DNA of 64,000 nt from the NCBI GenBank assembly GCA_963675495.1, contig OY776215.1, forward strand, positions 928,001 through 992,000, given 5' to 3'. The notes beneath the pieces are model-generated. The model was not told the origin of the DNA, did no database searches, and saw nothing but the letters and a program-made list of their open reading frames with translations. Numbering within the stretch: position 1 is the stretch's first letter; each line of letters starts with the position of its first letter. The stretch comes from an uncultured Methanolobus sp. Its GTDB lineage: Archaea > Halobacteriota > Methanosarcinia > Methanosarcinales > Methanosarcinaceae. A program made the position numbers and the translations under genes. This document shows, piece by piece, positions 33,986 to 58,132 of the stretch.

Positions 33986-33987
33986 AA

Positions 33988-38000: not shown

Positions 38001-40357
38001 CAATTATCATCGACCACCTGATACCACCTGTTGTGTCAGCTGGAAGTTATGGAAACTACAGTGTATTGAACAACAAGATCAGTGTTTACACAACCTCGGT
38101 CACTGAATCCGAAGCACTGCTCCAGGCTCATTTGCAGGATATAATCACCCTTACAATGGAACTTGGACTGGACAGCAGAGTGAATATGAGTCTTGCACAG
38201 GACAATGCAACTGTGGGCATCTTCCTTGATGATCTGGATGACGTACTAAGAGAACTGAGAAGCCAGTCCATGCCTTACGGACTTCACATACTTGGTGAAG
38301 CACCACAGGGCGATGAGCTTGTAGGAATGGTCAAATCCATGCTTGGAGATGACTACACAGATGCTGTAGCAGCTTATAATGACACGGAATCTGCACCATT
38401 TGATATGTTGAGCCTTGTTCTGCTCGATAGTATGAACATCACAGATGCCCAGATGCAGGTTCTTGGAAATACTTCTGCAACAGTGGAGACCGATCTGACC
38501 AATGCCATCAATTACGCAGAACTTCTGGCTGAATCAGATAACGAGATCCAGCAGGTCCTAAAGGCAATGGATGGAGGATACATCGAACCAAATCTTGGTG
38601 GAGATCCGATACTCCGTCCTGATACACTACCTACTGGCAGGAATTTCTATGCATTTGATGAGCAACTGATACCAACAGAAAACGCATGGAATGATGGAAC
38701 AGCACTTGTGGACCAGTGGATAGCCGATTACTATGCAGAACACGGTGAGTATCCAAATAAGGCAGGATACATCCTTTGGGCAGGTGAATCAACCCGTCAC
38801 GAAGGTGTAATGGAAGCACAGATATTCTACCTACTTGGAGTCAAACCTGTATGGGATGAGGATGATAGTGAAGTCGTTGATGTGGAACTTATACCAGCAG
38901 CTGAACTGGGAAGACCTCGCATCGATGTCATGGTACAGATATCAGGACTTTACAGGGATACTTTCCCAATGAAGGTAGACCTTATCGACAAAGCTGTAAG
39001 ACTTGCTTATGAGCAGGATGAACCTGACAACTATGTCAGGGAGAACACCAATGCTCTTCAGCTAGCACTTAACGACACGATCGGTAACTACAACCTGTCA
39101 CTTGACATTGCACAATTCAGGATATTCGGTCCGGAAGATGGTTCCTATGGTACCGGAATGGCAAACGCTGTGTCAGCCAGTAATACATGGGAAGACAACA
39201 GTGAACTCGCTGAACTTTACATCAATAAGATGAGCTACATTTACGGTGAAGATATCAGAGGGCAAACTGTTGAGGAGTACATAAAGCAAAAAACCGGAGA
39301 GGATATCCAGATCGATGACACTCTTGTCTTTGAGAACATACTTGATGGAACTGACGTACTTGTACATAGCAGAAGTTCCAACACATACGGTGCCACAAAT
39401 ACCGATGAGTTCTATCAATATCTGTCAGGCCTTTCCAATGCCATTAAGGCAGTATCCGGTGAAGAGCCAGACCTGCTGATAGCAAACCTGGAAAATCCTG
39501 CTGACCTTAAAGTAGAGGATGTGGAAACATACCTTGAGAATGAACTGTACACTGTGTTCAGTGATATGAATATCCAGGGATGGATGTCACACGGATACGA
39601 AGGTGCCAGAATGATGATGAACTTCGTTGAGAACCTCTGGGGAATTGAAGCCCTGACACCTGGTCTTGTAACCGAAGACATGTGGGCTCAGACCTATGGA
39701 AAGTTCGTTGCAGATAAGACAGTATCAGACTGGATGAAAGATGCCAGTCCGTATGCCTATGAGTCAACAACCGGCAGACTGATCGAAGTAGTCAGAACAG
39801 GAAACTGGAATCCTTCAGATAAAGTACTGGAAAGTCTTGTGAATGAGTATATTGACACTGTTGTTGAAAATGGTGTAACATGCTGTCACCACACCTGTGG
39901 TAATCCAACGCTTGATGAATTCATTACGAGTGCGGTTGATTCCGGAAAGATACAGGTTTCACAAGCAAAGATGGACGAGTACAAAAAGATCATGGAAGAA
40001 ACCAGAAATCCACTTCCAAAAACTCCAACATCAGCACCAACTCCAACAACAACTCCAAGCAGCAAAAAGAGTTCCAGTAACACGGGGACTGAACTGAATG
40101 TTGTCGAAACCAGTGGAGGTAACCAGAGCACCTTCACAGATTCCGGTGCAGGAGACATACTGGAAGAGGAAGCATCCATGAAGTCACCTGTTGAAGACAG
40201 TTATGTCGAGGGATATGAAATGACAAGAGAAACTGTTGAGGATGATTCTGAAAGTAGTCCATATTCCATATCGGGTTCAGATGTGATAGCATCTGTACTG
40301 GTGATCGGACTTGTAGGAACGATGTATATAGGATTCTGGAGAAGGAGGAAATTGTAA
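35084..40357 (+). CDS. CobN/ChlH-family chelatase-like protein 1, secreted and C-terminally anchored, with three N-terminal beta-sandwich repeats
   Basis: Signal peptide, GRHGTVEWLPG, LPTGRNFY, RHEG, RPRIDV..SGLYRD, TCCHHTCGN and TM-GFWRRRKL; exact start uncertain (35084/35096/35111). Confidence 0.88.
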   Translation: MVVDMIEKRMVGKNYIGIAGKISLILLLSILIFSANAMALDLNQFEFVANTTSDSSGNFTFENIPNGEYVLYSVNESYSKKYDEWRWYNGKIDIKVNSSDITGLELEVASGSDIDQNEVLAYLDKSAITGNTYLYAMSKYYYKASTLVLIDKQTDELIANTTSDSSGNFTFEDIPNGEYVLYSVNESYSKKYDEWRWYNGKVDIEVNSSDITDLELEVASGSNIDQNEVLAYLDKSAITGNTYLYAMSKYYYKASTLVLIDKQTDELIANTTSDSSGNFTFEDIPNGEYVLYSVNESYSKKYDEWRWYNGKVDIKVNSSDITDLELEVASGSDIDQSEVLAYLDKSAITGNTYLYAMSKYYYKASNVVLLKQKSSTITNEPHLNVSIITGYSSYEEELANFTNRINSNPELNINVSTYITTKLPDDIDLSNTDIVYIKMVTQSASEFEDTLQEAIDNGALVIGQNTYLPESNYTHPSNPNYDTITKFKDHLDDYWSGASLDDTNFDNLIFYLAQEYYGRADLTVEEPSVIPMAIYHPGMKDMPAEYLVVNAEEYFGWYANRTDGHAFDADAPTIGITFYGSYYMDDMDPINKLIEGFEENGANVVACYGGTKNHLDGYLNYSSQTKVDAVVSFHYRGNYFDLEELGVPVMNAILNGYMNTSQWIETSTPLPVTNMLRLYRPETEGAIDPIMIGALETIVEDNSTVEKYIGHDEQIDWLVERAISQANLSIEEESDKKIAIIYYNHGGGKDNIGASYLEVAPSIVNLLVGMDDAGYDVNGTLIPNKTELVDLMVYQGRNVGTWAPGELDKMVETGKAELIPESTYLGWFNELPEVRRTEVIDMWGEAPGEIMVYTDESGDRFIVIPKISLSDNVILAPQPTRGWLQDNEVLYHDEELPPHHQYIAFYLWMQNEFDADAMVNMGRHGTVEWLPGKDFCLLSEEWPAIMTGDIPVVYPYVMDGMGEGLQAKRRGNAIIIDHLIPPVVSAGSYGNYSVLNNKISVYTTSVTESEALLQAHLQDIITLTMELGLDSRVNMSLAQDNATVGIFLDDLDDVLRELRSQSMPYGLHILGEAPQGDELVGMVKSMLGDDYTDAVAAYNDTESAPFDMLSLVLLDSMNITDAQMQVLGNTSATVETDLTNAINYAELLAESDNEIQQVLKAMDGGYIEPNLGGDPILRPDTLPTGRNFYAFDEQLIPTENAWNDGTALVDQWIADYYAEHGEYPNKAGYILWAGESTRHEGVMEAQIFYLLGVKPVWDEDDSEVVDVELIPAAELGRPRIDVMVQISGLYRDTFPMKVDLIDKAVRLAYEQDEPDNYVRENTNALQLALNDTIGNYNLSLDIAQFRIFGPEDGSYGTGMANAVSASNTWEDNSELAELYINKMSYIYGEDIRGQTVEEYIKQKTGEDIQIDDTLVFENILDGTDVLVHSRSSNTYGATNTDEFYQYLSGLSNAIKAVSGEEPDLLIANLENPADLKVEDVETYLENELYTVFSDMNIQGWMSHGYEGARMMMNFVENLWGIEALTPGLVTEDMWAQTYGKFVADKTVSDWMKDASPYAYESTTGRLIEVVRTGNWNPSDKVLESLVNEYIDTVVENGVTCCHHTCGNPTLDEFITSAVDSGKIQVSQAKMDEYKKIMEETRNPLPKTPTSAPTPTTTPSSKKSSSNTGTELNVVETSGGNQSTFTDSGAGDILEEEASMKSPVEDSYVEGYEMTRETVEDDSESSPYSISGSDVIASVLVIGLVGTMYIGFWRRRKL
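35224..36180 (+). repeat. Three tandem 330-bp (110-aa) intragenic repeats
   Basis: ANTTSDSSGNFTF..YKAS unit recurs at 330-bp spacing; copies 2 and 3 are nearly identical in DNA. Confidence 0.92.
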
Positions 40358-40360
40358 AGT

Positions 40361-40400
40361 GTTTTTGGCGCTTTTAAAAAAAGCGTCTTTTCTTTTTTAT
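40361..40400 (+). terminator. Hairpin plus U-tract terminator after CobN-like 1
   Basis: GGCGCTTTT..AAAAGCGTC followed by TTTTCTTTTTT. Confidence 0.75.
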
Positions 40401-40578
40401 TTTTACAATGATAATGAATTCATTTATATGCGGAAAGAGTTATTACTTTTTATGCTAATGTATATACACATTATAATCACATAACTAAGTAAAACACAAT
40501 TGTTTGTGATTTTAAATAATTCTATATACATATTTAATTAGAATTTAAGAAGTTTTGAATTGATTGATCAATAGTTAT

Positions 40579-40645
40579 GAGCACTCCTGAATAACCGCCA
40601 AACAAAACGGAGAGTGTTCTGAACACGTTATCGGGGGATAACATG
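40579..40645 (+). promoter_or_regulatory. Conserved structured 5'-leader element, copy 1 (riboswitch-like)
   Basis: P1 GAGCACTC/GAGTGTTC around loop ATAACCGCCAAACAA; P2 GTTATC-GGGG-GATAAC abutting ATG 40643. Confidence 0.7.
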
Positions 40646-43600
40646 CAATTAAAAATAAAATCGATATTACTAGTAAGCATATTATTGCTTGTTGCACTAA
40701 CTGGTGTTGCAGCAGCAGATGAACAGAAAACAAAAATAACTTACATAGCTTATTCAGATGCTTATTCAGAGAACGAGGCACTGCAGATAGCAAGTCAGAG
40801 CAACGACCACAGTGACCTGATAGAATACACGTTCATTGAATACGGAAACTCAACATTTGGTGCAAGCCCGGAGTTGCTTGCGGCCGCTGAGAGTGGTTTC
40901 CTGGGAACACAGGATGTAATATTCTGTGATATGATGGGAAGCAAGACATTTAACGCATACAATGGAACCATAAATGAAAGTTTTAAGCATGCACAGGACA
41001 ATGGAGCAGAGCTTTACAGTATACGTACCAGCAGCACTCCATCATACTTCGACTATGTAATATCAGGTGCTGCAGAGCCAGATCCGATATGCACATACTA
41101 TCAGGCAATAGACACTACTGAAGAAGGCATAGAGAATGCTGAGAACCTGCTGATGTACCTCGCAATGAGAACGAGGATTACCTACATAGCTTATTCAGAT
41201 GCTTATTCAGAGAACGAGGCAATGCAGATAGCAAGTCAGAGCAACGATCACAGTGACCTGATAGAATACACGTTCATTGAATACGGAAACTCAACATTTG
41301 GTGCAAGCCCGGAGTTGCTTGCAGCTGCTGAGAGTGGTTTCCTGGGAACACAGGACATAATATTCTGTGATATGATGGGAAGCAAGACATTTAACGCATA
41401 CAATGGAACCATAAATGAAAGTTTTAAGGATGCACAGGACAATGGAGCAGAGCTTTACAGTATACGCACCAGCAGCACTCCAGCATACTTCGACTATGTA
41501 ATATCAGGTGCTGCAGAGCCAGATCCGATATGCACATACTATCAGGCAATAGACACTACTGAAGAAGGCATAGAGAATGCTGAGAACCTTCTGATGTACC
41601 TCGCAATGAGAACGAGGATTACCTACATAGCTTATTCTGATGCTTATTCAGAGAACGAGGCAATGCAGATAGCAAGTCAGAGCAACGACCACAGTGACCT
41701 GATAGAATACACGTTCATTGAATACGGAAACTCAACATTTGGTGCAAGCCCGGAGTTGCTTGCAGCTGCTGAGAGTGGTTTCCTGGAAACACAGGACATA
41801 ATATTCTGTGATATGATGGGAAGCAAAACATTTAACGCATACAATGGAACCATAAATGAAAGTTTTAAGGATGCACAGGACAATGGAGCAGAGCTTTACA
41901 GTATACGTACCAGCAGCACTCCATCATACTTCGACTATGTAATATCAGGTGCTGCAGAACCAGATCCGATATGCACATACTATCAGGCAATAGACACTAC
42001 TGAAGAAGGCATAGAGAATGCTGAAAACTTTCTGATGTATCTGGCAAAACACGATGACACCTTTGTAGAAACTGCTCTTATGAGTACAGATACAAGTACC
42101 AGTCTTGTTGAAGATGGGGACCTATTATTCATTCTGGGTACCGATCATAATGAAGCAGACCTGATCAATGCTGCAAATGATACAGAAATTTCCTCCAGTT
42201 TGAATATTACTATCCTGACAAATGACAATATCCCACCTGCAGACTATGATTTTTCACCATATTCATTGATCTTCATTGAATCACAGGATGAAAATGTAGT
42301 GGAAGGATGGAGTTCCAGTATAAACTCATCAGCCAATGTCATTGGTTATAATCTGTCATCCAATATTACATTGCCAAACGTTGACCTGTATTCAGATGAG
42401 TACACAGATATTGAAAGATACTGGATACAGGGCGGAGAGGCAAATATGAAGAATATGCTTAAGTTCATGGCAGGAAATTCAGCCATAGATGAACCTGAAA
42501 TTGTTCTTCCAAAGGCAAACCTGACATAAATTCTCAGTTCTGACAGCAGTGTTGCTTATATGACAAAGGTTATTGAGGAAAGAGATGTCATCACAGACCG
42601 TTTCAACGTCAATGTAATGGGCACCCTTGAAGCTATCGACAGTACTGTGGACCTCAGCAATGAGGATGTTATAATAATACATATGATGGGATCAGAAGGA
42701 GCTGCTGAAATAAAGGACCGATTGCTTGAAGCAAAAGCCAATGGTACCGAGATCGGGCAGTTCGATTGTGTAGCTGATATCTATGGATTTACCACCTTTG
42801 ACATAGAAAGCGATTATCCCACAATTCCATATTATCTATACAATAATGGATTTTCCAATATGGAGTACTGGATACGCTGCACAGGAGTTACTTTTGGGGA
42901 TGCATACATAGAATATACTGATCCAATAGAACCTGTTGTTCCTGAAGACGGAATCTACCACCCTGATGCATTCCCAAGGATATTCGAGGACAGTGCAGAA
43001 TACCTTCAATGGTATGAAGAGCAAGGCTATGACCCATCTGCACCCACCATTGGTATAATTGGAAACAAATTTGGTCAGACCTCCATTGAATTTACCACAG
43101 AGGATGCAATAATCCGATATCTGGAATCCCAGGGATGCAACGTGATCCATGCCAGTTACATTGTCGCTAGCGAAGATGTGGATATTTTCACTAAAGACGG
43201 AGAAGTTCTGGTTGATGCTATCATTTCCATAAAAGGATTCTACCTGAATTATAATAGTCCGGAGGCAGGTGTTGAGTACCTTCAGAACAAGTACAATGTT
43301 CCTGTGTTAAAGGGTGTAACTGACTACTACCAGTCACCTGAAGAATATATTGCAAATGTTCAGGGACTGAGTTCCGCATCAATTCCATCCCAGGTCACAC
43401 AGCCTGAAATTGACGGTCTGACCGACTACATATGGATTTCTGGAAGAACACAGGATCCTGATACTGAGCAGTATTACTACGAACCATTGGATTATCAGGT
43501 TGAATGGATCTGTGACAGAGCAATTGCCTGGGCAGAACTTGGAGAGACAGATAATGCTGACAAGAAGATAAGTATTATTTATTACAACCACGAAGGCGGT

Positions 43601-46600
43601 AAGAACAATATTGGCGCCAGCTATATGGATATTGGTTCAAGTTTCACACTGCTTATGGAAGGCATGAGAGATGCCGGATATGATGTTGGAAACGATACAA
43701 TTCCAAACGGAAGCGAGTTCATTGATCTGTTTATAACCAGCAGGAACGTTGGTTCATGGGCACCAGGAGAGCTTGAGAAGGTCGTTGAAAGCGGCTATGT
43801 GACAATGGTTCCTGTAGATGAGTATCTACAATATTACAATGAACTTCCTGAAACTGTCCGTGAAGAGGTTGAGGATACATGGGGAGAAGCTCCCGGAGAC
43901 ATCATGACCTATGAGAACGAAAGCGGAAAGTACTTTGTAATACCAACCATACAGCTTGGTAACATCAATTTCATTCCCCAGCCAACAAGAGCAGGACTCT
44001 CTGACGAGACACTTATCTACCACAATGAATCCATACCACCAACACACCAGTATCTTGCAACATACTTCTGGATCAATAATGGATACGACGCAGATGCACT
44101 GATCCACTTTGGTACTCACGGTACTCAGGAATGGTTACCTGGTAATGAAGTAGGACTCTGGAGATATGATTATCCATCTATCATGGTTGCAGAAACTCCT
44201 GTTGTTTATCCATACATCATGGATAATGTAGGAGAAGGTACTCAGGCAAAACGCCGTGGCAATGCTGTCATAATCGATCACCTCACACCTGCTATAGTTG
44301 AAGCCGGACTTTACGGTGAACTTGCTATAATGCACGACAAGATTCACAACTATGGAGAGGCAAAGGATGACGATGATACCGATATGATGGTACGTTATAG
44401 AAACAGTACTATACAGCTATACGATAATCTTACCCTCGGTGAAGATCTTGGTGTTTCAACCGAAGAATTGTCTGCCATGACAGATGATGAGTTTGAGAAC
44501 TTCCTTGACAGTGTATTGCATGAATACCTCCATGAATTACAGGAAGAACTAATGCCTTATGGACTACACGTTTTCGGTGTTGCACCTGATGACTTCAAAC
44601 TTGTCTCGATGGTCAAATCCATGCTTGGCAGCGATTTTACTGATGATATCTACGACGTACTTCCAAAGACCAGCGGAAGTCAGGAAGACTGGGAGGATGA
44701 AGCAAGTACTGATGCAACATTGCTACTGAATGCGACATTGCTTGATGATGTAAATGTATCAGATGCACAGGTTGAAGTGTTTGGACAGGAATACACCAAT
44801 ATCACAGTTGATCTGGAACTTGCACTTGAATATGCAGATAATCTGGAACAAACGACCCGTGAAATAAGCCAGACACTGCGCGCTCTTGATGCAGAATACA
44901 TTGAACCTGTAACCGGAAATGATCCGATTCGTAACCCAGGTGCATTACCTACTGGTAATAACTTCTACAGTTTTGACCAGAGAACAATACCAGATGAGGA
45001 AACTGAAGCACAGGGTCGTCAAGTAATCAGAACATGGCTTGATTCCTATTGTTCAGAGAACGGAGAATATCCTAATAAGGTATCCTTTGTACTGTGGTCT
45101 GTTGAAACAATGCGTCACGAAGGTCTGATGGAAGCACAAATATATGAGTTGCTTGGAGTGGAACCTGAAAGGAGCTCCGGCAGACTGACAGGAGAGTTCA
45201 CTGTAATACCTGTTGAAGAACTTGGACATCCAAGAATTGACGTACTGCTTGTACCTTCCGGACTCTACCGTGATACATTCCCATTCCAGCTCGAACTACT
45301 GGACAATGCAGTTCGTACGGTTTCTGACCTTGACGAGACCAATGAGACAAACTACGTGAGAATGAATTCACTTGCAATTGAAAATGCCATGCTTGAACTG
45401 GGATACAATGAAAGCATTGCACACTACATTTCAAGGTCAAGGATATTCAGTGAAGCTGAAGGCACCTACGGCACCGGTGTGACCGAAGCCGTAGAGGCAA
45501 GTGAGACTTGGGAGAATTCAACCGAGATCGCTGACCTGTTCATCGCCAGAATGGCAAACGTTTATGGAGCAGATGTATGGGGTGACAACTATGAGGATGT
45601 GCTCAAACTCAACCTTGTCGATGTAGATGCAGCAATACACAGTGATTCAAGCAACCTCTACGGTCTTATAGACAATGATGATTACTACCAGTATCTTGGT
45701 GGACTCGGACTGGCTATAAGGTCACTTGGAGGTGGAGATCTTTCAATGTATATTGCAGACTTTACAACTGTTGACAATCCTGAGATCATCACTCTTGAAG
45801 AAGCTTTCAGTAAAGAGCTGACTGCCAGATATCTCAATCCTAGCTGGTTGAATGGAATGATGGAGTATGATTATGCTGGTGCCAGGGAAATGATGAAAGC
45901 AGTCGAGTATATGTGGGGCTGGGAAGCAACTACACCAGGCCTTGTAACTGACTCGGATTGGAACAAGATCTATGAAACACTTATACTTGATTCACAAGAT
46001 ATAGGTGTGGATGACTTCCTGAAAGAAAACCCATATCAATATCAGTCTGCTCTGGCAAGGATGGCAGAAACTATAAGGAAAGATGGTTGGGATGCTGATG
46101 ATGGAGTTTTGAATAACATCGTCAAAGAGTACGTTGAATCTGTTGTCAATGATGGTGTCACATGCTGTCACCACACCTGTGGAAATGCAAAATTAGATGA
46201 TTTCATAACGGGTAATATGGCAGCAGCAGGAGTCAGCCAGGAAGTACAGGATGCATACAAGCAACTGATGTACGAAGCAACCCACAAGACAGAGATCCAG
46301 CAACAACCTGAAACTACAACTACTGCCAAAAGCAGCTCAGGCAGTCAGACCGGAACAGATCTGAATGTAGTAGAAGCAGGCTCTGGCTCATCCAATCAGA
46401 CCATGACAGCAGATTCTGGAGGAGCTGGTCTGGATTCTAATACACCTGTTCAGGATTCTGCAAAATCAACCCCTGATAACTATGTGGAAGGTTATGAGAT
46501 GACAAAGGAAAGTGTTGTGAACAACGACAACACAAATAGTCCATCAGTATCCAGTTCTGACATAATAGCTTCTGTCTTTGTTCTTGGAGCAGTAGGAGCA

Positions 46601-46636
46601 ATGTATGTAGGATTCTGGAGAAGAAGGAAAATGTAA
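40643..46636 (+). pseudogene. CobN/ChlH-family chelatase-like protein 2, interrupted by one in-frame TAA (42527-42529)
   Basis: ORFs 40643-42529 and 42560-46636 are in the same frame with an open 30-nt gap (..ANLT*ILSSDSSVAYMTK..). Signal peptide on the first part; HFGTHGTQEWLPG, TCCHHTCGN and TM anchor on the second. Confidence 0.75.
40735..42050 (+). repeat. Three tandem near-identical 441-bp (147-aa) intragenic repeats
   Basis: GCTTATTC anchor at 40748, 41189 and 41630; unit ITYIAYSDAYSENEA..ENAENLLMYLA. Confidence 0.93.
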
Positions 46637-46650
46637 AGTGCTGTAAAGTG

Positions 46651-46690
46651 TTTTTGGCGCTTTTCAAAAAAAGCGCCTTTTCTTTTTTTA
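46651..46690 (+). terminator. Hairpin plus U-tract terminator after CobN-like 2
   Basis: GGCGCTTTT..AAAAGCGCC followed by a T-tract. Confidence 0.75.
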
Positions 46691-46700
46691 TCGCGTCAAA

Positions 46701-46720
46701 GCGAAAACTTTATATATATA
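46701..46720 (+). promoter_or_regulatory. Probable BRE-TATA promoter of CobN-like 3
   Basis: GCGAAAAC TTTTATATATA directly after the terminator; implies a leader of about 250 nt. Confidence 0.55.
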
Positions 46721-46929
46721 ACAATTATTAGTTTTTATGATTATACACATAAGTATAAACACAATTAGCATTGTGTTTCAATAAAGTAATGTAATCATAA
46801 ACAATGTGGTGGTTCGTTGAAAAAATTATATATATACTCATTAAAACACACGTAGTGCTATGCAAGAAGAAACTAAGTTTTGGAAAAGCATAGTATATTT
46901 TATGCTTTTTTAATTCCAGATTATAATTA

Positions 46930-46999
46930 TTGTGAATGCTCCTTTGCAGCCGCCAAGCAAAGAAGGGAGTGTCCTCACAAGTTATCGGGGGATAACATG
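46930..46999 (+). promoter_or_regulatory. Conserved structured 5'-leader element, copy 2
   Basis: P1 ATGCTCCTTT (46936-45) / AAGGGAGTGT (46963-72) around CAGCCGCCAAGCAA; P2 GTTATC-GGGG-GATAAC abutting ATG 46997. Confidence 0.7.
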
Positions 47000-49900
47000 C
47001 AAATGAAAATAAAATCAATATTAATATTAGGTATATTGTTGTTGGTATCGCTAAGCGGTATTGCTGCAGCAGATGAACAGAAAATAAGCATAATGTATGT
47101 AGCATGGATGCCAGATCCAGCCCTTGAACTGGCAAGCCAGAATAGTTTATTTGCCGGGGATATAAATTACATATATATTCCATCTTATAACACGACTACA
47201 TGGACAGGACCAAGTGATGAGCTTATAGAAGCTGCAAATAATGGTCTTCTGGAAGAACAGGACATCATATTCTGTGATATGTTATCAGCAGCGGTTTTTG
47301 ACCCAATTAACACCTCATTCAGCCAGGCACACGATGCAGGAATATCACTTATCGACATCAATTCCATCAATACACCTTCCTATTTTGATTATATCAGTGA
47401 TGGAACTGATGACGATATGATCTGTAACCTGTACAATAACATGGGTACAGCTACAGAAACTGAGAGGCAGAACGCAGAGCACTTGCTCAAATATCTGGCA
47501 CAGGAATACGGAAACCATTCTGAGATAACAGATGAATGGGACAAGATCCGCGTACTGTGTATTGCATGGGAACCAAGTGCCGCCCTTCAGATGGCTTCTG
47601 AAACTAACAAACACAGAGATGTTATAGAATACACATACATACCTTCATACAACACAACAACATGGACAGGACCCAGCGATGAACTCATTGAAGCAGGAAG
47701 CAGCGGAGTCCTGAATGATCAGGATGTGATTTTCTGTGATATGCTAGCATCATCCATCTATGAGCCCATGGATAATGTCTTTTCAAATGCCAGTGAGAAC
47801 GGAGCGGTCTTTGTTGATCTCCGCTCTGCAGACACACCTGACTACTTCGACCATGTATATTCCGGCTCAGAGGATAACGAGCTATGCAACCTTTACAACA
47901 GTATGGGAACCATTACCGAAGAAGAGATTAAAAGTTCAAAGGATTTCCTGACTTTCCTTGCAAGTGAATATGGGGACCGTACGGACATAACGGATGACTG
48001 GAACAAGGTCAATATTCTCTACATCGCATATGCACCAAGCACCGCACTACAACTGGCAAGCGAAATGAGTGAGCATACTGATGATATCAAATTCAGTTAC
48101 CTGCCTTCGTACAACACCACAACATGGGCAGGACCCAGTGATGAACTCATTGAAGCGGGGAACAGTATTTTCCTGGAAAAACAGGACGTGATTTTCTGTG
48201 ACATGCTGTCTGCATCTGTATTCGATCCTATGAACAGCTCATTCTATGCAGCACAGGAGACTGGTGCCTCCTTACTCGATATTCGTTCAGTAAATACACC
48301 AGAATACTTTGATTACGTTTCCAACGGTTCTATCGACGATACCATGTGTAATTATTATAACAACATGGGTACCGAAACAGATGACGAGCAACTGAATGCA
48401 CAGAACCTTCTGGAGTATCTGGCAACTGAATACGGCGACAGGGACGAGATCACTGATACCTGGGACAATAAGATCAAGGTAATGTATATTGCATATGCAC
48501 CAGCTCAGGCACTTGAGCTGGCAAGCCAGAACAATATGCACAGTGACGAGATAGAATACACATACATACCATCATACAACACCACAACCTGGGCAGGTCC
48601 CAGCGACGAACTTCTGGAAGTTGCAAGCAGCGGTCTTCTGGATGAACAGGATGTAGTATTCTTTGACATGGTGACTGCAAGCGTATACGAGCCATTGAAC
48701 GATTCACTGATTAGCGCAAAGAACAATGGTGTTTCATTTGTAGACATCAGATCCATGAATACACCAGAATACTTTGATTATGTATCAAATGGTTCAATAG
48801 ATGACCCCATATGCAACTACTACAACAGTATGGGAATTAACTCAGAAGTAGAGAAGAAGAATGCGGAGAACCTACTCATCTACCTTGCAAAAGAGTACGG
48901 AAACCATCCGGAAATTACTGACAACTGGATAGCCATAAAGGTAATGTACATTGCATGGGCACCAAGTGACTCTCTGGCAACTGCAAGTAAGACAAACCCA
49001 TACAGCCAGAATATTGATTACACCTATATCGCTTCCTATAATACCACAACGTGGGCAGGACCCAGTGATGACCTGCTGGCTGCAGGTGAGGGAGGACTGC
49101 TGGAGGAGCAGGATGTGATATTCTGCGATATGCTCGCAGGAAGTATCTTTGAGCCAATTGACCAGTTCCTCAGAAATGCACATGATAATGGTACTGTTCT
49201 GGTGGACATACGTTCTACCAATACTCCTGACTACTTTGATCATGTATACAATGGATCTGAGAACAATACCCTGTGCAATTATTACAACAACATGGGAACA
49301 GCAACTGGCGCTCAGTTGAACAATGCTGAGAACCTGCTCATTTATCTTGCGAAGGAACTTGGCGTCAACCCTGGACTTACAGATGATTGGCAGTACGCAA
49401 CCCTCGGTCCAATATCACTTCCTGATGTTGGTCTTTATCACCCGGACTATGAAGGAAAGTATTTTGAAAGTACCGATGAATACCTGCAGTGGTATGCAGA
49501 GGATACCGGTACACACAGAATGTACGACCCTTCCAGACCGACCATAGGAATGTGGATGCACAGGTCGGATGTCAAAGATGGTCATACGGAAGTTGTAGAT
49601 GCACTTCTGCGAGACATTGAATCAAAGGATTGCAATGTCATTTTAGGAATCGATACCTTTGATGATATTGTAAAATTTTATTGTGACGAGAACAACGAGT
49701 CACTTGTTCAATCTGTAATCTCACTGAAGAGTTTCAGACTTAATTATTTCGATAATGAGAAGGGATTGCGTGAACTTGAAGAACTTGATGTACCGGTCCT
49801 CAGGGGAATAGTTGTTGAAACAACCAACGTTTATGACCCTGCAGATGAGAACCGTGGAATACCAAATGGTCAGGTCGTGCGAAAGACCATAGGACCGAAT

Positions 49901-52900
49901 GTTGATGGTATTTTTGAGTACATAGTAGTTGGAGACAGCACATATGACCCTACTACTGAAACCAGTTCATATACATCAAGGGATGCGCAGATTGACTGGA
50001 TAGTGAACCGGTCCATAAACTGGGCTGAGCTGAAACTCAATGAGAACAAGGACAAAAAAGTTGCAGTCATCTACTACAACTATCCATCCGGGAAGGACAA
50101 TATCGGTGCAAGTTACCTGGACACCATCTCAAGCATGAGACTTATGCTCAACAAAATGAATGAGAGTGACTTTTCAGTTACAGGCATTCCTGAGAACAAC
50201 AGCCAGCTTCTGGAAATGTTGTGGGCACAGGGTATCAATGCCGGTTCCTGGGCACCTGGCGTCATGAACGAGATGGTTGAGAACAAGACCGAATGGGGAC
50301 TTCAGCTCATACCAATGGAAACGTATCACCAGTGGTTTGAAGAGGAGATCCCTGAGGAGCTCAAAGAACAGGTAATACAGGAATGGGGAGAACCATGGTC
50401 CGAAGACCTGCCACAGAACAAGAGTCTCATGATGTGGGAGAATGATATCGGTGAGAAGTACCTGGTCATCCCGACTGTCCAGTTCGGTAATGTCTGGCTC
50501 ATGCCACAGCCTGCAAGAGGATTCCTACAGAACGATAATGCACTCTACCATAGCAGCCTTGTTCCTCCACCACATCAGTACATTGCTTTCTATCTATGGC
50601 TGAACAATGACTGGGATGCCGATGCTATAATCCACTTCGGAACTCATGGTACACATGAATGGCTACCGGGACAGGCATACGGAATGAACCGCTCTGCTGA
50701 GTGGGCACCGGTACTGTTGCAGGACCTACCTAACATCTATCCATACATAGTGGCAAATGTCGGTGAAGGTCTTACTGCAGAATATCGTGGCAATGCACTG
50801 ATAATTGATCATATGACACCAACCCTTGAACGATCAGGGACCTATGGTGAACTGGCAAACATGTCACGGTTCATACAGGAATATTACGGACCTGAGATGT
50901 CATTGCAAACCAAGCAAGCGTATCAGATGGCTATAATCGATGAAATGGTAATTTCTGGCGTCGACGTAGACCTTGAGGTTAATTCAACCGATCTGTATCT
51001 CTATAGTGAGGCAGAGTTTGATATCTTTGTCAAGGATATACTTCACGAATATCTGGAAGATATCGAAGGTGAGAACATTCCTTACGGAATGCATATACTT
51101 GGTGAAGTACCTTCAACGAATGCCACAGGCCCATACAGGGATGAACTCTCGGGTATGGTACGCTCAATGATGGGAAGTTACTTTGAGGAGAACGTAACAG
51201 CAGCATTCTATCCTCTGGAAGAGTACCCACTTGGAATCCCATTCAATGATACACAGGTAGAACTGCTGGTCTGGGAAGTCATAAGCAACGGAACAAGTCC
51301 CAATGACGCACAGATCATGGTCTATGGTGAGGTAAATGAATCACTGAACATCGATCTGGAATTCGGCCTCTCATGTAAACAGAATCTCATTGACAGTTCC
51401 ATTGAAATGGACCGTGTGATCCTTGCACTGAGTGGTGGTTTCATTCCTGCAGGACCGGGAACCGATCCTGTGATGAACCCCAATGCAGTACCAACTGGAA
51501 GGAACTTCTATGGTGTCAATCCTGAACTCTATCCTTCAGAAGCAACCTGGAAGCTGGGCAAGATGCTTGCACAGCAATTGATAGATGACTACTACCAAAA
51601 CCATGGTGAATATCCACGTAAAGTATCATTCTCAAGGTTTGGTGTAGAGTTCATCAGGGACCATGGTACCCTGGAAGCAGAAGCACTGTATATGATGGGG
51701 GTCCAGCCAGTCTGGGACAGGAATGGAAAGGTGATAGGTGTTGAGCTGATACCTGAAGAAGAGCTAGTTCCAGACTACGACACCTCAATTGCCGGCAGGC
51801 CACGTATTGACATCGTTTACACCACCGCAGGCATGCGTGATGCATTCCCTGAAAAGTTGAAGATGCTTGATAATGCTGCAAAAATGGCAAATCTTGCTGA
51901 ACCTGGTAACTATCCAAACTATGTGAACATCAGTACACAGGCAATCTATACGGATCTTTACGCTTCATTCCTTAACAGCACCGGCAATGAAACATATTCA
52001 GCTGACTTGGCAGATACACTATCCACCATGCGCTGTTTCGCTGTTCGTGACGGAACCTATGAAATAGCTGTTGGAAATGCCATTGAGGCCAGTGGAACAT
52101 GGGAAAATGAATCAGAGATAGGAGAGCTGTATCTTGATAAGATGGGATATGCCTATGGCAGTGAGCTCTGGGGATACGATTGTTCTGACCTGCTCAGAGG
52201 CAATCTGATGAATGTAGATGCTTCAGTACATTCAGACTCATCTAACCTGTACGACACACTGGACAATGATGATTTCTTCCAGTATTTCGGTGGTTTGAAC
52301 CTTGCAACAAGATATGTGAGCGGAAAAACACCTGATATGTACGTTTCCGACACAAGGAATCCAGATAAGGCAGAAATTGTCGAGCTTGGCAGGTACATCA
52401 ACGTAAACATGCGTTCCAGATATCTTAACGATAAATGGATAGAAGGTATGAAGGGTTCAGGCTATGCCGGTGGCAGAATGATGGCTGAGTTCGTGGACAA
52501 TCTCTGGGGATGGGAAGTATCCAATTCCGAACTTGTTGACGATAAAATGTGGGAGAACGTGTTCAACACATACACCACTGATGAAATGAAGGAGTTCTTC
52601 AATGCAAACAACCCAGGAGCCTATCAATCCATTACAGGCAGGATGCTGGAAGGTGTACGCAAGGGATATATTGACCTGCCAGACGATGCTGTCAATAAGC
52701 TTGTGAAAGACTATATGGAATCAGTTGCAGAGAATGGAGCAACATGTTGTCACCACACATGTGGGAATCCATCGCTTGATACCTTTGTTCAGGGTAATAT
52801 ACCAGCTGACTTTAGTCAGCAAACGATAGATGCATACAAGAATCAGATGTTCGAGGCAACGTTGAGAAAAGAACTCCAGACACAGCCTTCTGAGAGTACG

Positions 52901-53227
52901 ACAACATCCAGTAGCATTCCAAGTAGTAGTTCAAGTAGTAGCACCGGAACCGAGCTGAAGATCACTGAATCCGGGTCAGGTTCAGCAAATCAAACATTGG
53001 AAGCAAACGGTGGTGCAGGAATGGACATGAACGCACCTGTCCAGGACTCTACAAAATCAACCCCTGACAACTATGTAGAAGGTTATGAAATGACAAAAGA
53101 GACAACTGCAACTACGTCTGAAAACAGTGGCTTTACGGCTAGCAGTTCAGACATAATAGCTTCGGTATTTGTTCTTGGTGCAGTCGGAGCTATGTATATA
53201 GGATTCTGGAGAAGAAGGAAGTTCTAA
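46997..53227 (+). CDS. CobN/ChlH-family chelatase-like protein 3, secreted and anchored, with five diverged N-terminal head-domain repeats
   Basis: Start MQMKIKSIL parallels paralog 2 (MQLKIKSIL); HFGTHGTHEWLPG, VPTGRNFY, TCCHHTCGN and GFWRRRKF. Confidence 0.9.
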   Translation: MQMKIKSILILGILLLVSLSGIAAADEQKISIMYVAWMPDPALELASQNSLFAGDINYIYIPSYNTTTWTGPSDELIEAANNGLLEEQDIIFCDMLSAAVFDPINTSFSQAHDAGISLIDINSINTPSYFDYISDGTDDDMICNLYNNMGTATETERQNAEHLLKYLAQEYGNHSEITDEWDKIRVLCIAWEPSAALQMASETNKHRDVIEYTYIPSYNTTTWTGPSDELIEAGSSGVLNDQDVIFCDMLASSIYEPMDNVFSNASENGAVFVDLRSADTPDYFDHVYSGSEDNELCNLYNSMGTITEEEIKSSKDFLTFLASEYGDRTDITDDWNKVNILYIAYAPSTALQLASEMSEHTDDIKFSYLPSYNTTTWAGPSDELIEAGNSIFLEKQDVIFCDMLSASVFDPMNSSFYAAQETGASLLDIRSVNTPEYFDYVSNGSIDDTMCNYYNNMGTETDDEQLNAQNLLEYLATEYGDRDEITDTWDNKIKVMYIAYAPAQALELASQNNMHSDEIEYTYIPSYNTTTWAGPSDELLEVASSGLLDEQDVVFFDMVTASVYEPLNDSLISAKNNGVSFVDIRSMNTPEYFDYVSNGSIDDPICNYYNSMGINSEVEKKNAENLLIYLAKEYGNHPEITDNWIAIKVMYIAWAPSDSLATASKTNPYSQNIDYTYIASYNTTTWAGPSDDLLAAGEGGLLEEQDVIFCDMLAGSIFEPIDQFLRNAHDNGTVLVDIRSTNTPDYFDHVYNGSENNTLCNYYNNMGTATGAQLNNAENLLIYLAKELGVNPGLTDDWQYATLGPISLPDVGLYHPDYEGKYFESTDEYLQWYAEDTGTHRMYDPSRPTIGMWMHRSDVKDGHTEVVDALLRDIESKDCNVILGIDTFDDIVKFYCDENNESLVQSVISLKSFRLNYFDNEKGLRELEELDVPVLRGIVVETTNVYDPADENRGIPNGQVVRKTIGPNVDGIFEYIVVGDSTYDPTTETSSYTSRDAQIDWIVNRSINWAELKLNENKDKKVAVIYYNYPSGKDNIGASYLDTISSMRLMLNKMNESDFSVTGIPENNSQLLEMLWAQGINAGSWAPGVMNEMVENKTEWGLQLIPMETYHQWFEEEIPEELKEQVIQEWGEPWSEDLPQNKSLMMWENDIGEKYLVIPTVQFGNVWLMPQPARGFLQNDNALYHSSLVPPPHQYIAFYLWLNNDWDADAIIHFGTHGTHEWLPGQAYGMNRSAEWAPVLLQDLPNIYPYIVANVGEGLTAEYRGNALIIDHMTPTLERSGTYGELANMSRFIQEYYGPEMSLQTKQAYQMAIIDEMVISGVDVDLEVNSTDLYLYSEAEFDIFVKDILHEYLEDIEGENIPYGMHILGEVPSTNATGPYRDELSGMVRSMMGSYFEENVTAAFYPLEEYPLGIPFNDTQVELLVWEVISNGTSPNDAQIMVYGEVNESLNIDLEFGLSCKQNLIDSSIEMDRVILALSGGFIPAGPGTDPVMNPNAVPTGRNFYGVNPELYPSEATWKLGKMLAQQLIDDYYQNHGEYPRKVSFSRFGVEFIRDHGTLEAEALYMMGVQPVWDRNGKVIGVELIPEEELVPDYDTSIAGRPRIDIVYTTAGMRDAFPEKLKMLDNAAKMANLAEPGNYPNYVNISTQAIYTDLYASFLNSTGNETYSADLADTLSTMRCFAVRDGTYEIAVGNAIEASGTWENESEIGELYLDKMGYAYGSELWGYDCSDLLRGNLMNVDASVHSDSSNLYDTLDNDDFFQYFGGLNLATRYVSGKTPDMYVSDTRNPDKAEIVELGRYINVNMRSRYLNDKWIEGMKGSGYAGGRMMAEFVDNLWGWEVSNSELVDDKMWENVFNTYTTDEMKEFFNANNPGAYQSITGRMLEGVRKGYIDLPDDAVNKLVKDYMESVAENGATCCHHTCGNPSLDTFVQGNIPADFSQQTIDAYKNQMFEATLRKELQTQPSESTTTSSSIPSSSSSSSTGTELKITESGSGSANQTLEANGGAGMDMNAPVQDSTKSTPDNYVEGYEMTKETTATTSENSGFTASSSDIIASVFVLGAVGAMYIGFWRRRKF
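47080..49400 (+). repeat. Five diverged ~155-aa intragenic repeats
   Basis: SYNTTTW(T/A)GPSD and QD(V/I)(I/V)F(C/F)DM each recur five times. Confidence 0.88.
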
Positions 53228-53230
53228 AGT

Positions 53231-53270
53231 GTTTTTGGTGCTTTTCAAAAAAAGCACCTTTCTTTTTTAT
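53231..53270 (+). terminator. Hairpin plus U-tract terminator after CobN-like 3
   Basis: GGTGCTTTT..AAAAGCACC (compensatory change relative to the other copies) plus a T-tract. Confidence 0.75.
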
Positions 53271-53447
53271 TTTTTCAAAGTTAATGAATTGTTTTATAAG
53301 TATAAACATGTATAATTGTTTTTACTAACATATGTAAATCTAATATTAATTTACATCGTGTTTTCGAATACGCGTATAATTTAAATTAATTCTACGTAAA
53401 ATGAGGATGATAATCAAGATGTTTTGAATTAATAAAACAATGGTCAT

Positions 53448-53512
53448 GAACACTCCTGTTCAGCCGCCAAGCAATTGCAGGAGTGTCCAACACATTGTCG
53501 GGGGACAATATG
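53448..53512 (+). promoter_or_regulatory. Conserved structured 5'-leader element, copy 3
   Basis: P1 ACACTCCTGT (53450-59) / GCAGGAGTGT (53477-86) around CAGCCGCCAAGCAA; P2 ATTGTC-GGGG-GACAAT abutting ATG 53510. Confidence 0.7.
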
Positions 53513-53620
53513 CAGTGTAAATATATAATATTGTTAATATTAAGTTTTTCCCTATTTTTTTCAATAACGAATGTATCATCAATTGATTATCGTAGTATAG
53601 ATCAAACAAACTTGATTTAA
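53510..53620 (+). CDS. 36-aa upstream ORF resembling the signal peptide of CobN-like 2/3 (leader peptide or remnant)
   Basis: MQCKYIILLILSFSLFFSITNVSSIDYRSIDQTNLI*; starts at the ATG held in the conserved P2 hairpin. Confidence 0.4.
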   Translation: MQCKYIILLILSFSLFFSITNVSSIDYRSIDQTNLI

Positions 53621-53657
53621 ATCAACTTACATGACTAACTTGGTGGTGAGGTACGAT

Positions 53658-56600
53658 ATGGTACTTAAAAACATTAAAAGATACAAAAATATCTTTGCAG
53701 CAGCCCTTATAATAGTATTCTTAGCAACAGCATTTGCTGCTGCGGAGAGTGCTGGTAACGATACAATAAATTCAACAGGCAATACAGTAGATGCAGCTTT
53801 ATCTGAAAACGATACAATTGATGCAAATACTTCTACTATAGTGAAAATTCCGGACATGGATATAAAGCCAAAAATAAGCTACGTGCTGTCGCGTCCTTAT
53901 GCGGTTACACTTATGCAGAACGTAGCTGCAGACCCTCAGATAAGCTCACAGATGGACATAAGCATCTATCTTGGCACATCCTATGCAGACCTGGGTTTTG
54001 ACCTGAGCGATCAGGATCTGGTTGTTCTGAGAAACCTCGATGCCTATGTTGTGGACACTATCGCACCAACAGTAAATGAAGCGAAAACAAACGGTGCACA
54101 CGTTGTCTCAATAGGAGAGACCCTGGAAGCCTATGGACTTCATAACGTAAATATATCAGACCCGGAATACTTCGATATCAACCTGTATCAGACATACTCA
54201 TCTCAGGAAAATTTCAAAGGACTCACGACTTTCCTGGGAGTTAAGTTCTTCGGTTTGAACTATAGTATCACAGCACCTGTGGAAAGACCTGTCTACGGCA
54301 TCTATCATCCTCTTGCGCCCCAAATATATGGAAATCTTACTGATTACCTTGATTGGTATAGTTCAACAGGAACATATGATGCAGACAGACCTACCATTGC
54401 GATAGTAACTACCAGTTACATAAGAGTGGAAAGGGATATGCCCCTGCTTGACCCACTTGTTGAGGATATAGAAGGAAAAGGATACAACGCAATTGTAACA
54501 ACTTATGCCTACAAGGATGATAAGTCCCTGAGCTACCTTATGAAGGACAACAGATCCATTGCAGATGCTGCTATTGTGATCTCACGTGGGTCACGCCTTC
54601 ATTATTCTGATAACGAACATGGAATTTCCGACCTGCAGACACTTAACATAACTGTCCTGAACGGTGCCCGCCTGTTCTCAGGAGTCAGTGTGGAAGAATG
54701 GGAGAACAGTGTTCATGGTGTGCCACCTGCCCAGCAGTATCAGGTAGCCTACGCAGAACTTGACGGGATCATCGAACCAATTGTAATCAGCGGAAAAGCC
54801 ATAGATGAAGCAACTGGAATCGAATATAACCAGCCAATTGATTATCAGATAGACTGGCTCGTCGACAGAACAATAGCCTGGGCTGAACTACACCAGAAAT
54901 CAAATTCAGAGAAGAAAGTGGTCATACCATATTATAACCCGGAAGGTGGTAAAGCAGACATGGGTGCGGATATTGATTACTATCTTGACGCACAGGCAAG
55001 TCTGGCAAACATTCTTGAAGCTATGCAAGAGAGAGGTTATGACGTTGGCAGTGAACCACTTCCAAATTCCAGCGAACTTGCAGGTATGATGATGGAAAGC
55101 GGGCACAATATTGGTAGCTGGGCTCCCGGAGAACTGACCGAATGTGTTGAAAATGGCAGCACAATACTCATACCTGAATCCCAGTACATGGAATGGTTCG
55201 AAGAACTCCCACAGGATAAAATTGATGAAATGACAGCAATGTGGGGTGAAGCACCTGGAAATATCATGGTCTATGAGAATTCCACAGACAAATATCTGGT
55301 CATACCTGTGCTCGAATTTGGAAATGTTCTTCTTGCACCTGACCCACAACACGGATGGTCCTCAAGTGAAAAAGCAATGTATAACAATGCTTCATATCCG
55401 CCAACACATCAGTGTTTTGCTTTTTACAAGTACATGTCAAGGGAATACGAAGCTGATGCATTGTTCACCATATTCTCAAGCGTTGAGCTGATGCCCGGTA
55501 AAGAATGCGGTCTTTCCGCAAAGGACTGGGGAGCACTCTTACTTGAAGATATGCCACATATCCACGTACTTCCAATGGACGCAGAAGGTGTCTTTGACAG
55601 AAGAAGAGCAAATATGCTCATCATTGATTTCATGACACCGACAATAGTGCCGGCAGGTCTTTATGGCGACCTTGCAAACCTCCAGCAGGAGATCACATTA
55701 TTCAAACAGGCAACAGACAGCGCGGTGAAAGAGAGTTACAGGGAGAGCATCATAAACCAGACAAGAAACCTGAGCCTTGACAATGACCTCAGTGTTGACC
55801 TGGACCCAATTTCAGGTGATGCAGACCTTACAGATACTTTCATTGATGAACTCTCGGATTATCTCTATGAACTGAAGACTGCCTACATGCCGTATGGATC
55901 TCACATACTTGGTGAGGTTCCTGAAGGCGAAAGTCTCATCATGCTCATAAAAGGGATGCTTGGAGACGAATATGTAGATCATGTGGAAACACTTGGTGGA
56001 AACGAGGAAATTTCAATCTTACTATTGAATGAAACAATACTGAACGGAAGCACCCCTTACGATGCGCAATTAAAGGTACTTGGTCAGAACTCCACAGAAC
56101 TTGGAAGTGATCTGGATCTGGCTCTTGAATATATGGGAAGGATACAGGACTGTGAATGTGAGATTACTAAGATACTCGATGCACTTGATGGTACGTATAT
56201 CACACCGGGACCATCCGGTGACCCTATCAGGAACCCTGATGCATTGCCAACAGGCAGGAATCTCTACACATTTGATGACCGCCTTATACCTACAAAAGCA
56301 GCATGGGATGTTGGTTCACAACTTGCAGACGATATGCTTGTATTGAAACTTGAAGAAGATGGTCAATATCCTGAAAAGATAGCTTTCCTGCTATGGTCTG
56401 TGGAAACCACAAGAAACCAGGGTGTCATGGAATCCGAGATATTCAAACTTCTGGGAGTAGAACCCTATTATGACAGCAAGAACAGAGTAAAAGGGTTCAC
56501 ACTAATCGATTCCGAGGAACTTGGCAGATCAAGGGTAGACGTGATGGTGTTAACCTCAGGTCTTTACCGTGATGTGTATCCAAGCAAGATAGAACTCATA

Positions 56601-57980: not shown

Positions 57981-58132
57981 ATAGAATTGTGTCAACATGT
58001 ATTAAAATAAATAGTAAAAATATACTTTTTTTCATATATTCACTGTGTTTTATATAGGTGCTTGACCGAATATATATACTAGTTAAGATACTTCTAATTC
58101 TATATCTCAGCACAAAAACAGGAAATTGGCTT

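Follow-up and report, generated by a model that had tools for sequence, protein, structure and literature searches.

A covarying two-hairpin element over the translation starts of secreted CobN-like genes in the family of Methanolobus: possible template of a cis-antisense RNA

Background

Several bacterial cis-antisense RNAs lie over the ribosome-binding site of their targets, in particular, RNA-OUT of IS10, Sok of hok/sok, SymR and CopA. Here we analyze an element of two hairpins, P1 and P2, that is found at the starts of secreted CobN-like genes in an uncultured Methanolobus sp. (assembly GCA_963675495.1, contig OY776215.1, positions 928,001 to 992,000; this whole stretch of 64,000 nucleotides is referred to below as the window). 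With a probability that we put at about one half, the element would serve as template for a small antisense RNA, cis-encoded, conserved and ~90-120 nt long, that covers the Shine-Dalgarno (SD) sequence and the AUG, with mirror hairpins present in the mRNA leader; transcription of this RNA is predicted from sequence features. The predicted RNA resembles the bacterial systems in being short and structured, with a promoter in or beside the 5' end of the target, full complementarity to the SD and AUG, and hairpins with complementary loops. It differs from them in that the promoter is of the archaeal type (B recognition element and TATA box, BRE/TATA) and is embedded in signal-peptide codons, in that the targets are secreted CobN-like genes rather than a transposase, toxin or replication gene, and in the strict conservation of the loop core across genera.

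An earlier examination of the same DNA (hereinafter, the original prediction) took the element for a new sense-strand riboswitch or another translational switch. The cobalamin and NiCo riboswitches (Rfam families RF00174 and RF02683, respectively) control cob and metal genes in bacteria, and the position of the element in leaders, before CobN-type or metal-related genes, is comparable. However, the element is much smaller, has another architecture and produces no Rfam match in the window. The guanidine-II (mini-ykkC) riboswitch consists of two small hairpins with kissing loops; the present element also has two tandem hairpins, the second of which contains the SD, so that a loop-loop contact is conceivable, but it lacks the ACGR loops, an Rfam match and covariation between the loops.

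The class of transcripts to which the predicted RNA would belong has been recorded in archaea. Differential RNA sequencing (dRNA-seq) of Methanolobus psychrophilus, the same kind of organism, showed antisense transcription to be common, with 1110 antisense start sites in 908 open reading frames (ORFs) and with such sites in 28.7% of the ORFs (PMC5378194), and an antisense transcriptome has been reported for Halobacterium salinarum (PMC6523106). The parts of these two papers that we compared list start sites and do not describe a conserved, covarying antisense family at CobN-like genes. No earlier description of the element was found in the literature searched.

The element is of interest because, in a whole family of methylotrophic methanogens, the translation starts of secreted CobN-like genes carry a structured RNA element dedicated to them, which implies tight post-transcriptional control. 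Signals that switch the antisense or the sense RNA (iron, nickel, cobalt, heme or corrinoids) would point to the role of the CobN/HmuS-like proteins. If confirmed, a conserved, covarying antisense family would join the few archaeal regulatory RNAs with comparative support.

Conservation and covariation of the two hairpins

Three copies of the element are present on the forward strand of the window (~40579-40646, 46934-47000 and 53448-53513), each ending at an ATG that starts directly after P2 (at 40643, 46997 and 53510 in copies 1, 2 and 3, respectively). Alignments of the three copies show P1 with arms of ~10 bp and the loop YARCCGCCAARCAA, a short linker that ends in CA, and P2, which is GUUAUC-GGGG-GAUAAC in copies 1 and 2 and AUUGUC-GGGG-GACAAU in copy 3, all as originally read; that CA pairs with the UG of the start codon, also part of that description, is borne out by both alignments and folds. 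By position, all three copies overlap the SD and AUG at the starts of CobN-like genes. The 11-mer loop pattern taken alone is within chance expectation (3 matches versus 1.31 expected, with 14 of 100 shuffles reaching 3). The element as a whole exceeds it: the longer pattern CCGCCAANCAA(2-10 nt)GAGTG has exactly three matches in the 2.87-Mb genome, namely, the three copies, and the backwards-read control has none; the covariance-model E-values of the copies are ~1e-21 to 1e-22.

The expectation that the element would fall outside the known RNA families was correct: none of the 4227 Rfam 15 families reached the gathering score on either strand of the window and, with E-values of up to 10, the region 40400-40760 around copy 1 yielded only two chance matches to small nucleolar RNAs. 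A covariance model built from the three copies detects the element in 32 of the 36 genomes of the genus and, over the family, in 70 of 151 genomes and 9 of 16 genera; with a second model, built from 104 copies, these numbers are 78 genomes and 12 genera (E ≤ 0.001). When the second model was run against a phylum sample, 13 of 151 genomes matched, all of them in the family of the window, and there were no matches in the 136 genomes from 25 other families. The element is confined to the family of Methanolobus (151 family genomes compared with 136 genomes from 25 other families). Matches to the covariance model number 125 across 100 sources. The 115 distinct ones comprise 104 copies in the usual orientation, 7 whose P1 loop is inverted and 4 on the opposite strand at inverted-loop loci (3 of these 4 belong to a copy already counted among the 7). 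In almost all cases, the element lies directly 5' of a signal-peptide ORF that is followed by a CobN domain. The domain is encoded on the same strand for 65 of the 66 sense matches with at least 4.5 kb of downstream sequence, and a match to either CobN or the 628-aa protein encoded behind copy 1 was found for 89 of the 96 sense matches with at least 1.4 kb downstream. In two loci (L017:1501-1574 and L090:501-573), the ATG of the element copy is directly followed by a stop codon (ATG TAA).

Covariation, which was weak evidence when only three paralogs were at hand, holds on the alignment of the 104 distinct usual-orientation copies (made with MAFFT, with no structure fitted; the 7 inverted and 4 opposite-strand matches were left out). 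In this alignment, 91.3% of the P1 and P2 cells are paired, compared to 80.0% after shuffling (none of the 500 shuffles reaches the observed value) and 30-46% when the partners are slid, and the pairs with the highest mutual information are helix pairs. Changes on both sides are seen in 14 of the 19 pairs of P1 and P2, and compensatory changes in all 11 pairs of P1 (for example, columns 15-48 are CG in 63 copies, UA in 38 and another combination in 3); given that the sequences are related paralogs and orthologs, these counts overstate the number of independent events. The helices are real. The core of the P1 loop consists of 12 conserved unpaired bases, one of which, A32, is present in 104 of 104 copies. 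An element without a function of its own, the similarity of which would stem from common descent and from gene conversion between tandem paralogs with the same 5' end, would be compatible with the very similar 5' ends of the tandem paralogous genes. We consider this explanation extremely improbable because 12 genera retain the element in the midst of diverging intergenic DNA, because every P1 pair shows compensatory change, and because the element also persists before truncated ORFs.

Strand bias of the helices

To compare the strands, the same 23 pairs were counted on an antisense alignment and on the sense alignment. Altogether, the antisense strand has 95.7% of the cells paired and the sense strand 83.0%, with the greatest differences in the mini-stem within the loop (97.1% and 66.6%, respectively) and in P2 (97.1% and 80.3%), and smaller ones in outer P1 (90.7% and 86.1%) and inner P1 (96.9% and 95.4%). 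In the antisense alignment, 14 of the 23 pairs changed on both sides, and its pairing level is reached by none of 500 shuffles. With P2 extended to 10 pairs, the non-Watson-Crick cells on the sense strand are A·C in 181 cases and G·U in 6. An A·C combination on one strand is a G·U pair on the other, so that the P2 helix is continuous only on the opposite strand. The 5' strand of P2 varies almost exclusively by transitions (off-class letters in 3 of 104 copies in column 58 and in none in columns 62-64), whereas loop columns 38-40 are mixed.

Folding points in the same direction. The RNAalifold consensus of the antisense strand has 20 pairs and an energy of -20.7 kcal/mol, compared to 13 pairs and -15.97 kcal/mol for the sense strand; single-sequence folds are stabler on the antisense strand for the P1 part in 89 and for the P2 part in 93 of the 104 copies. 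The sense folds of copies 1, 2 and 3 of the window have energies of -19.2, -24.0 and -25.2 kcal/mol (z-scores of -2.4 to -3.0), and the antisense folds of the identical segments reach -23.5 kcal/mol (z -4.21) for copy 1 and -32.5 kcal/mol (z -4.71) for copy 3. On the minus strand, P2 of copy 1 (denoted P2', as P1' denotes the mirror of P1) forms a continuous 10-bp helix the first base of which is the complement of position 40646. In a held-out set of 18 more divergent matches that were fetched after the antisense idea had formed, P2' is a continuous antisense hairpin of 10-11 bp from the first base in 10 of the 11 distinct P2 sequences, and 17 of 104 pairs of P2 are G·U on the antisense strand, compared to 2 of 88 on the sense strand.

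This bias could, in principle, arise as a by-product of the constraints under which the SD, the AUG and the second codon evolve, in which case the element would be a sense leader without an antisense RNA, either read by a protein or purely structural, with effects on stability or translation. Such a leader, which we regard as unlikely although it deserves serious consideration, is compatible with the efficient pairing of P1, especially inner P1, on the sense strand too, with the presence of the SD, the AUG and the CAA/CGA codon in P2, which fix its 3' strand such that only the 5' strand is free to vary, and with the whole-element folds of the held-out set, which show no clear bias. What it fails to explain is that the free 5' strand of P2 varies by transitions only, which keeps the antisense wobble pairs, that inverted loops are conserved, and that a promoter-like match at a fixed position is kept, along with a codon bias, in truncated ORFs (see below for both). 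On the methodological side, counts of G·U versus A·C, combined with a check for inverted loops, can assign the strand of a leader motif before a riboswitch is called.

Promoter-like and terminator-like signals on the antisense strand

A 16-nt BRE/TATA matrix (consensus ACCGAAAACTTTATAT) was learnt exclusively from 47 distinct tRNA upstream regions of this genome and applied to 105 loci from -250 to +200 relative to the ATG. There is one sharp peak, on the antisense strand with the 3' end at +29, where a score of at least 8 bits is reached in 53 of the 105 loci (compared to a background of 0.0017 per position); no peak was detected on the sense strand of these regions. A plain scan for TATA words gave no peak, so that the learnt matrix was needed. 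The antisense match is located inside codons 10-15 of the signal-peptide region but is not a by-product of signal peptides: among the genes of this genome, a score of at least 8 bits anywhere between +20 and +40 was found in 18 of 1722 long ORFs and in none of 147 signal-peptide-like ORFs. The codon choice at positions 11, 12 and 14 fits an embedded antisense promoter, with TTA for Leu11 in 81 of 84 cases (genome-wide usage 9%), AGY for Ser12 in 87 of 87 (33%) and TTG for Leu14 in 89 of 93 (11%); further downstream, the codons revert (TCN for Ser18 and CTN for Leu19). No indels are present between the ATG and codon 14. The promoter-like match is also kept in truncated ORFs, one of which has a stop at codon 2 (median score of 9.3 bits, with at least 8 bits in 8 of 14 loci), and reaches at least 8 bits in 9 of the 18 held-out matches. 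At the two ATG TAA loci, the block from +29 to +44 still scores a promoter-like 9.6 bits in L017, compared to a weaker 5.8 bits in L090.

Given the usual archaeal spacing, the predicted antisense start lies at ~+4 to +9. The antisense P2 hairpin begins at +4, where the sense strand has a C in 101 of 104 copies. In the M. psychrophilus study, BRE/TATA elements are found ~19-22 nt from start sites (PMC5378194). At the other end, P1' is followed within 30 nt by a U-run (at least 4 U) in 77 of the 104 loci; on the sense strand, the equivalent T-run is seen in 17 of 104. Of the copies in this genome, copy 3 alone has the appearance of a strong antisense unit; its 36-aa remnant ORF, in which the promoter-like match resides, is closer to the promoter consensus than most intact genes. 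A separate hairpin, AAAAGCAUAGUAUAUUUUAUGCUUUUUU (46886-46913, +), in the copy 2 leader is flanked by U or A runs on both sides, resembles a bidirectional terminator, at which the antisense RNA of copy 2 may stop.

One further candidate on this strand, a conserved small ORF on the antisense RNA, was rejected: its ATG is lost where column 84 is U (25 of 104 copies), and changes in loop length shift the frame.

Inverted P1 loops and readings of the element as a riboswitch or as DNA

Reverse-complemented P1 loops are found in 7 loci of the genus, with the core still conserved and the upstream flank diverged; 5 of the 7 genomes with this inversion have only the inverted copy. A second, apparently independent inverted group, with the loop GGCUGGCGGGCU, is present in another genus of the family (loci L140, L142, L143, L148 and L149, ~301-379 each). 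One genome of that second group (G042) also carries two usual-orientation copies. An inversion swaps the loops between the sense and antisense partners and would, accordingly, be neutral if both strands are transcribed.

These inversions are difficult to reconcile with the sense-strand riboswitch of the original prediction, in which the P1 hairpin with its conserved loop would be an aptamer for a metal, a tetrapyrrole or another ligand, and P2 would be the platform that hides the SD and AUG. This interpretation can draw on the leader position in a functionally coherent gene family, on the 12 conserved unpaired loop bases above a covarying P1, on the inclusion of the SD and AUG in P2 and on plausible sense promoters upstream of P1 in the window (7.1, 17.2 and 7.3 bits); given that no known class matches, such a riboswitch would be new. 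However, conservation of the unpaired loop bases in a single orientation, as expected of a riboswitch, is not what we find: the core is inverted in two clades and nevertheless conserved, even though inversion would destroy an RNA aptamer. Furthermore, P2 is interrupted on the sense strand, the wobble pairs fall on the opposite strand, the sense fold is no better than the antisense one, and the nucleotide-level conservation in codons 8-15 is left unexplained. The proposed contact of the P1 loop with the G-rich P2 loop that holds the SD was rejected for want of covariation: the best contiguous pairing is 3.88 compared to 3.97 under permutation (278 of 300 permutations reach the observed value), and loop-SD pairs are absent among the top mutual-information pairs of the alignment. 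The alternative GUG/CAC helix shows no clear covariation either (none clear for pair 51-58, and 35 A·C cells for pair 48-61). Taken together, a real, conserved and covarying structured cis-regulatory element survives from the original prediction, whereas its identification as a sense-strand riboswitch or translational switch is not supported and, in our assessment, is quite improbable.

Two other proposals for sense-strand function were also dropped. Pairing of the coding block from +25 to +45 with the leader yielded only same-letter, lineage-type correlations, and a role of the 3' strand of P1 as an SD mimic does not agree with the many copies that have CCGAAAUG-type arms.

A loop that is conserved in either orientation would be natural for an element that functions as DNA, either an operator for a dimeric transcription factor or a cruciform or hairpin DNA, with the loop core as a double-strand site usable either way. 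Template switching can flip the loop of a quasi-palindrome while its arms stay complementary, and the P2 arms resemble 9-bp half-sites, CAYRTTATC. Nevertheless, we deem this very improbable. The P1 arms differ between copies of the same genome yet stay complementary, the P2 spacer varies (mostly 4 nt, 5 nt in about one third of the copies, with a letter in column 75 in 37 of 104, and up to 11 nt), and nearly all non-Watson-Crick cells are of one wobble type on one strand, which is a signature of RNA rather than of duplex DNA or a half-site.

Proposed mode of action of the antisense RNA

According to the cis-antisense interpretation that we favor, the BRE/TATA promoter in codons 10-15 would start transcription of the opposite strand at ~+4 to +9. 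The RNA would open with the 10-bp P2' hairpin, the C-rich loop of which is the complement of the SD, continue with the P1' hairpin (loop UUGCUUGGCGGC) and end at the U-run just past P1'. By position, the complementarity of the predicted RNA to the CobN-like mRNA is complete over the SD, the AUG and the P1 hairpin. Pairing might begin via the complementary loops, GGGG with CCCC and GCCGCCAAGCAA with its complement; CUUG in the predicted P1' loop conforms to the YUNR pattern of U-turns. The outcome could be lower translation or lower stability of the mRNA or, alternatively, interference of the convergent promoter with sense transcription; by analogy with known cis-antisense systems, we infer that the direction of control is repression, be it by pairing, decay or promoter interference. 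Given that P2 and the loop core are nearly identical among the paralogs, one antisense RNA could act on all copies in trans.

The mRNA leaders probably carry both hairpins. The best sense promoter-like matches 5' of P1 score 7.1, 17.2 and 7.3 bits for copies 1, 2 and 3, respectively, and the strong match upstream of copy 2 suggests that the leader of this copy contains P1 and P2. A sense promoter at a fixed distance was not found: within 300 nt 5' of P1, a score of at least 8 bits is reached in only 20 of 102 loci, at scattered positions. A perfect 9-bp inverted repeat, AAACACAAT-TAGC-ATTGTGTTT (46757-46778, +), is located in the copy 2 leader ~40 nt downstream of the strong sense promoter-like match and could be a transcription-factor operator; a shorter palindrome, ACAATTGT, is found upstream of copy 1, at ~40497-40504.

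Several observations weigh against the cis-antisense interpretation, in addition to the kinship of the copies mentioned above. The strand bias is mild in P1 alone (A·C in 75 and G·U in 52 cells, by column counts); among the held-out whole elements, the antisense fold is better in only 10 of 18, with 57 G·U pairs on the sense and 49 on the antisense strand; and copy 2 of the window folds better on the sense strand (-20.4 kcal/mol for the antisense fold). The signals for transcription are incomplete as well. At +29, 52 of the 105 loci score below 8 bits, and in the window a good antisense promoter match is present only at copy 3; 27 of 104 loci have no U-run within 30 nt, the 3' end being a guess from the U-run, and at copy 1 of the window no U-run is evident. 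Finally, the strict conservation of the loop core, with A32 in every copy, is unexplained by a perfectly complementary cis pair alone.

A further possibility is a two-strand module in which the mirror hairpins of the leader and of the antisense RNA, with its promoter inside the signal-peptide codons, would kiss via their conserved loops and control the whole extracytoplasmic CobN/HmuS-like family in trans, with the strictly conserved P1 loop core sensing a metal, a tetrapyrrole or a protein on either RNA. A loop core that works on whichever RNA carries it would explain the recurrent, tolerated loop inversions; still, we rate this more elaborate scheme as rather improbable. A separate trans partner carrying the complement of the loop core was considered and rejected, with no reverse matches of GCCGCCAAGC in the genome. 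The same search returned one extra forward match, inside a permease-like ORF, on the other strand.

Genomic context of the element

The coordinates of the element copies, the predicted signals and the surrounding genes are collected in Table 1. The original prediction placed all copies directly before CobN-like genes. This is the case for copy 2, whereas copies 1 and 3 are separated from the CobN-domain gene by another ORF, respectively, the gene for a secreted protein of 628 aa and the 36-aa remnant. All six named records among the relatives of the 628-aa protein come from Methanolobus. One other genome (L037) likewise has a 36-aa ORF of this type behind the matching copy, and in another (L042) the ORF is 18 aa long.

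Table 1. Element copies, predicted promoters and antisense RNAs, and genes in the window (ordered by position)
Feature	Position	Strand	Details
Genes for DUF2162 (predicted transporter), MotA/ExbB-like and DUF2149 proteins	33311-34976	+	directly upstream of the CobN array
Fourth CobN-domain gene	35084-40357	+	1757 aa; carboxypeptidase-regulatory-like repeats; directly after DUF2149
Copy 1 P1/P1' hairpin	40579-40619		arms GAGCACUCCUG / CGGAGAGUGUUC; loop core ACCGCCAAACAA at 40594-40605
Copy 1 P2/P2' hairpin	40623-40646		SD GGGGGAU and ATG 40643-40645 inside
628-aa secreted protein, no Pfam family	40643-42529	+	downstream of copy 1
Copy 1, position of antisense promoter	40671-40686	-	no promoter-like match (-2.0 bits)
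CobN-domain gene	42560-46636	+	after the gene for the 628-aa protein
Sense BRE/TATA-like match	46699-46716	+	AGCGAAAACTTTATAT; 17.2 bits; ~219 nt 5' of copy 2 P1
Predicted antisense RNA, copy 2	46884-47000	-	P2', P1', hairpin 46886-46913 ending in UUUU; ends uncertain
Copy 2 P1/P1' hairpin	46934-46974		loop core GCCGCCAAGCAA at 46949-46960
Copy 2 P2/P2' hairpin	46977-47000		SD and ATG 46997-46999 inside
Secreted CobN-domain protein	46997-53227	+	2076 aa; downstream of copy 2
Copy 2, position of antisense promoter	47025-47040	-	weak promoter-like match, 3.3 bits
Predicted antisense RNA, copy 3	53430-53513	-	P2', P1', UUUU at ~53433-53436; 3' end uncertain; 89-nt fold -32.1 kcal/mol, z -4.10
Copy 3 P1/P1' hairpin	53448-53488		loop core GCCGCCAAGCAA at 53463-53474
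Copy 3 P2/P2' hairpin	53490-53513		SD and ATG 53510-53512 inside
Remnant signal-peptide ORF	53510-53620	+	36 aa; downstream of copy 3
Copy 3 antisense BRE/TATA-like match	53538-53553	-	AGGGAAAAACTTAATA; 9.3 bits; inside the 36-aa remnant ORF; predicted start ~53513-53518
CobN gene	53631-57935	+	behind the 36-aa ORF, in another frame; own start and signal peptide

The genome encodes four CobN-domain proteins, and all four genes are in the window. The fourth gene, at 35084, has no copy of the element, and the predicted N-terminus of its product differs from the others. Its slot, just after the DUF2149 gene, is where other genomes have the inverted-loop copy; a DUF2149 gene also ends just upstream of the inverted-loop loci in those genomes.

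The genes upstream of the CobN array, together with the CobN/HmuS-type proteins, resemble the hmuSTUV part of the heme-uptake operon of Bacteroidota, in which an extracytoplasmic CobN/HmuS-type protein is likewise encoded beside MotA/ExbB-like, DUF2149 and DUF2162 genes; this similarity concerns the regulated genes and not the RNA. In the 2025 HmuS paper, HmuS is described as a heme dechelatase, which takes iron out of heme, and the role of the many archaeal CobN/HmuS homologs is called unclear (PMC12583661). Chelatase homologs of the CobN/HmuS type are numerous in methanogens.

Two additional features of the locus and the genome are worth recording. The CobN array is followed by a gene for a secreted protein of 1764 aa (58058-63352, +) that combines a subtilase (Peptidase_S8) domain with eight DUF5018 repeats. 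Outside the window, the genome encodes a tRNA-Pyl (identified with ARAGORN, at G000:C1:1714997), which fits a methylamine-using member of the Methanosarcina group.

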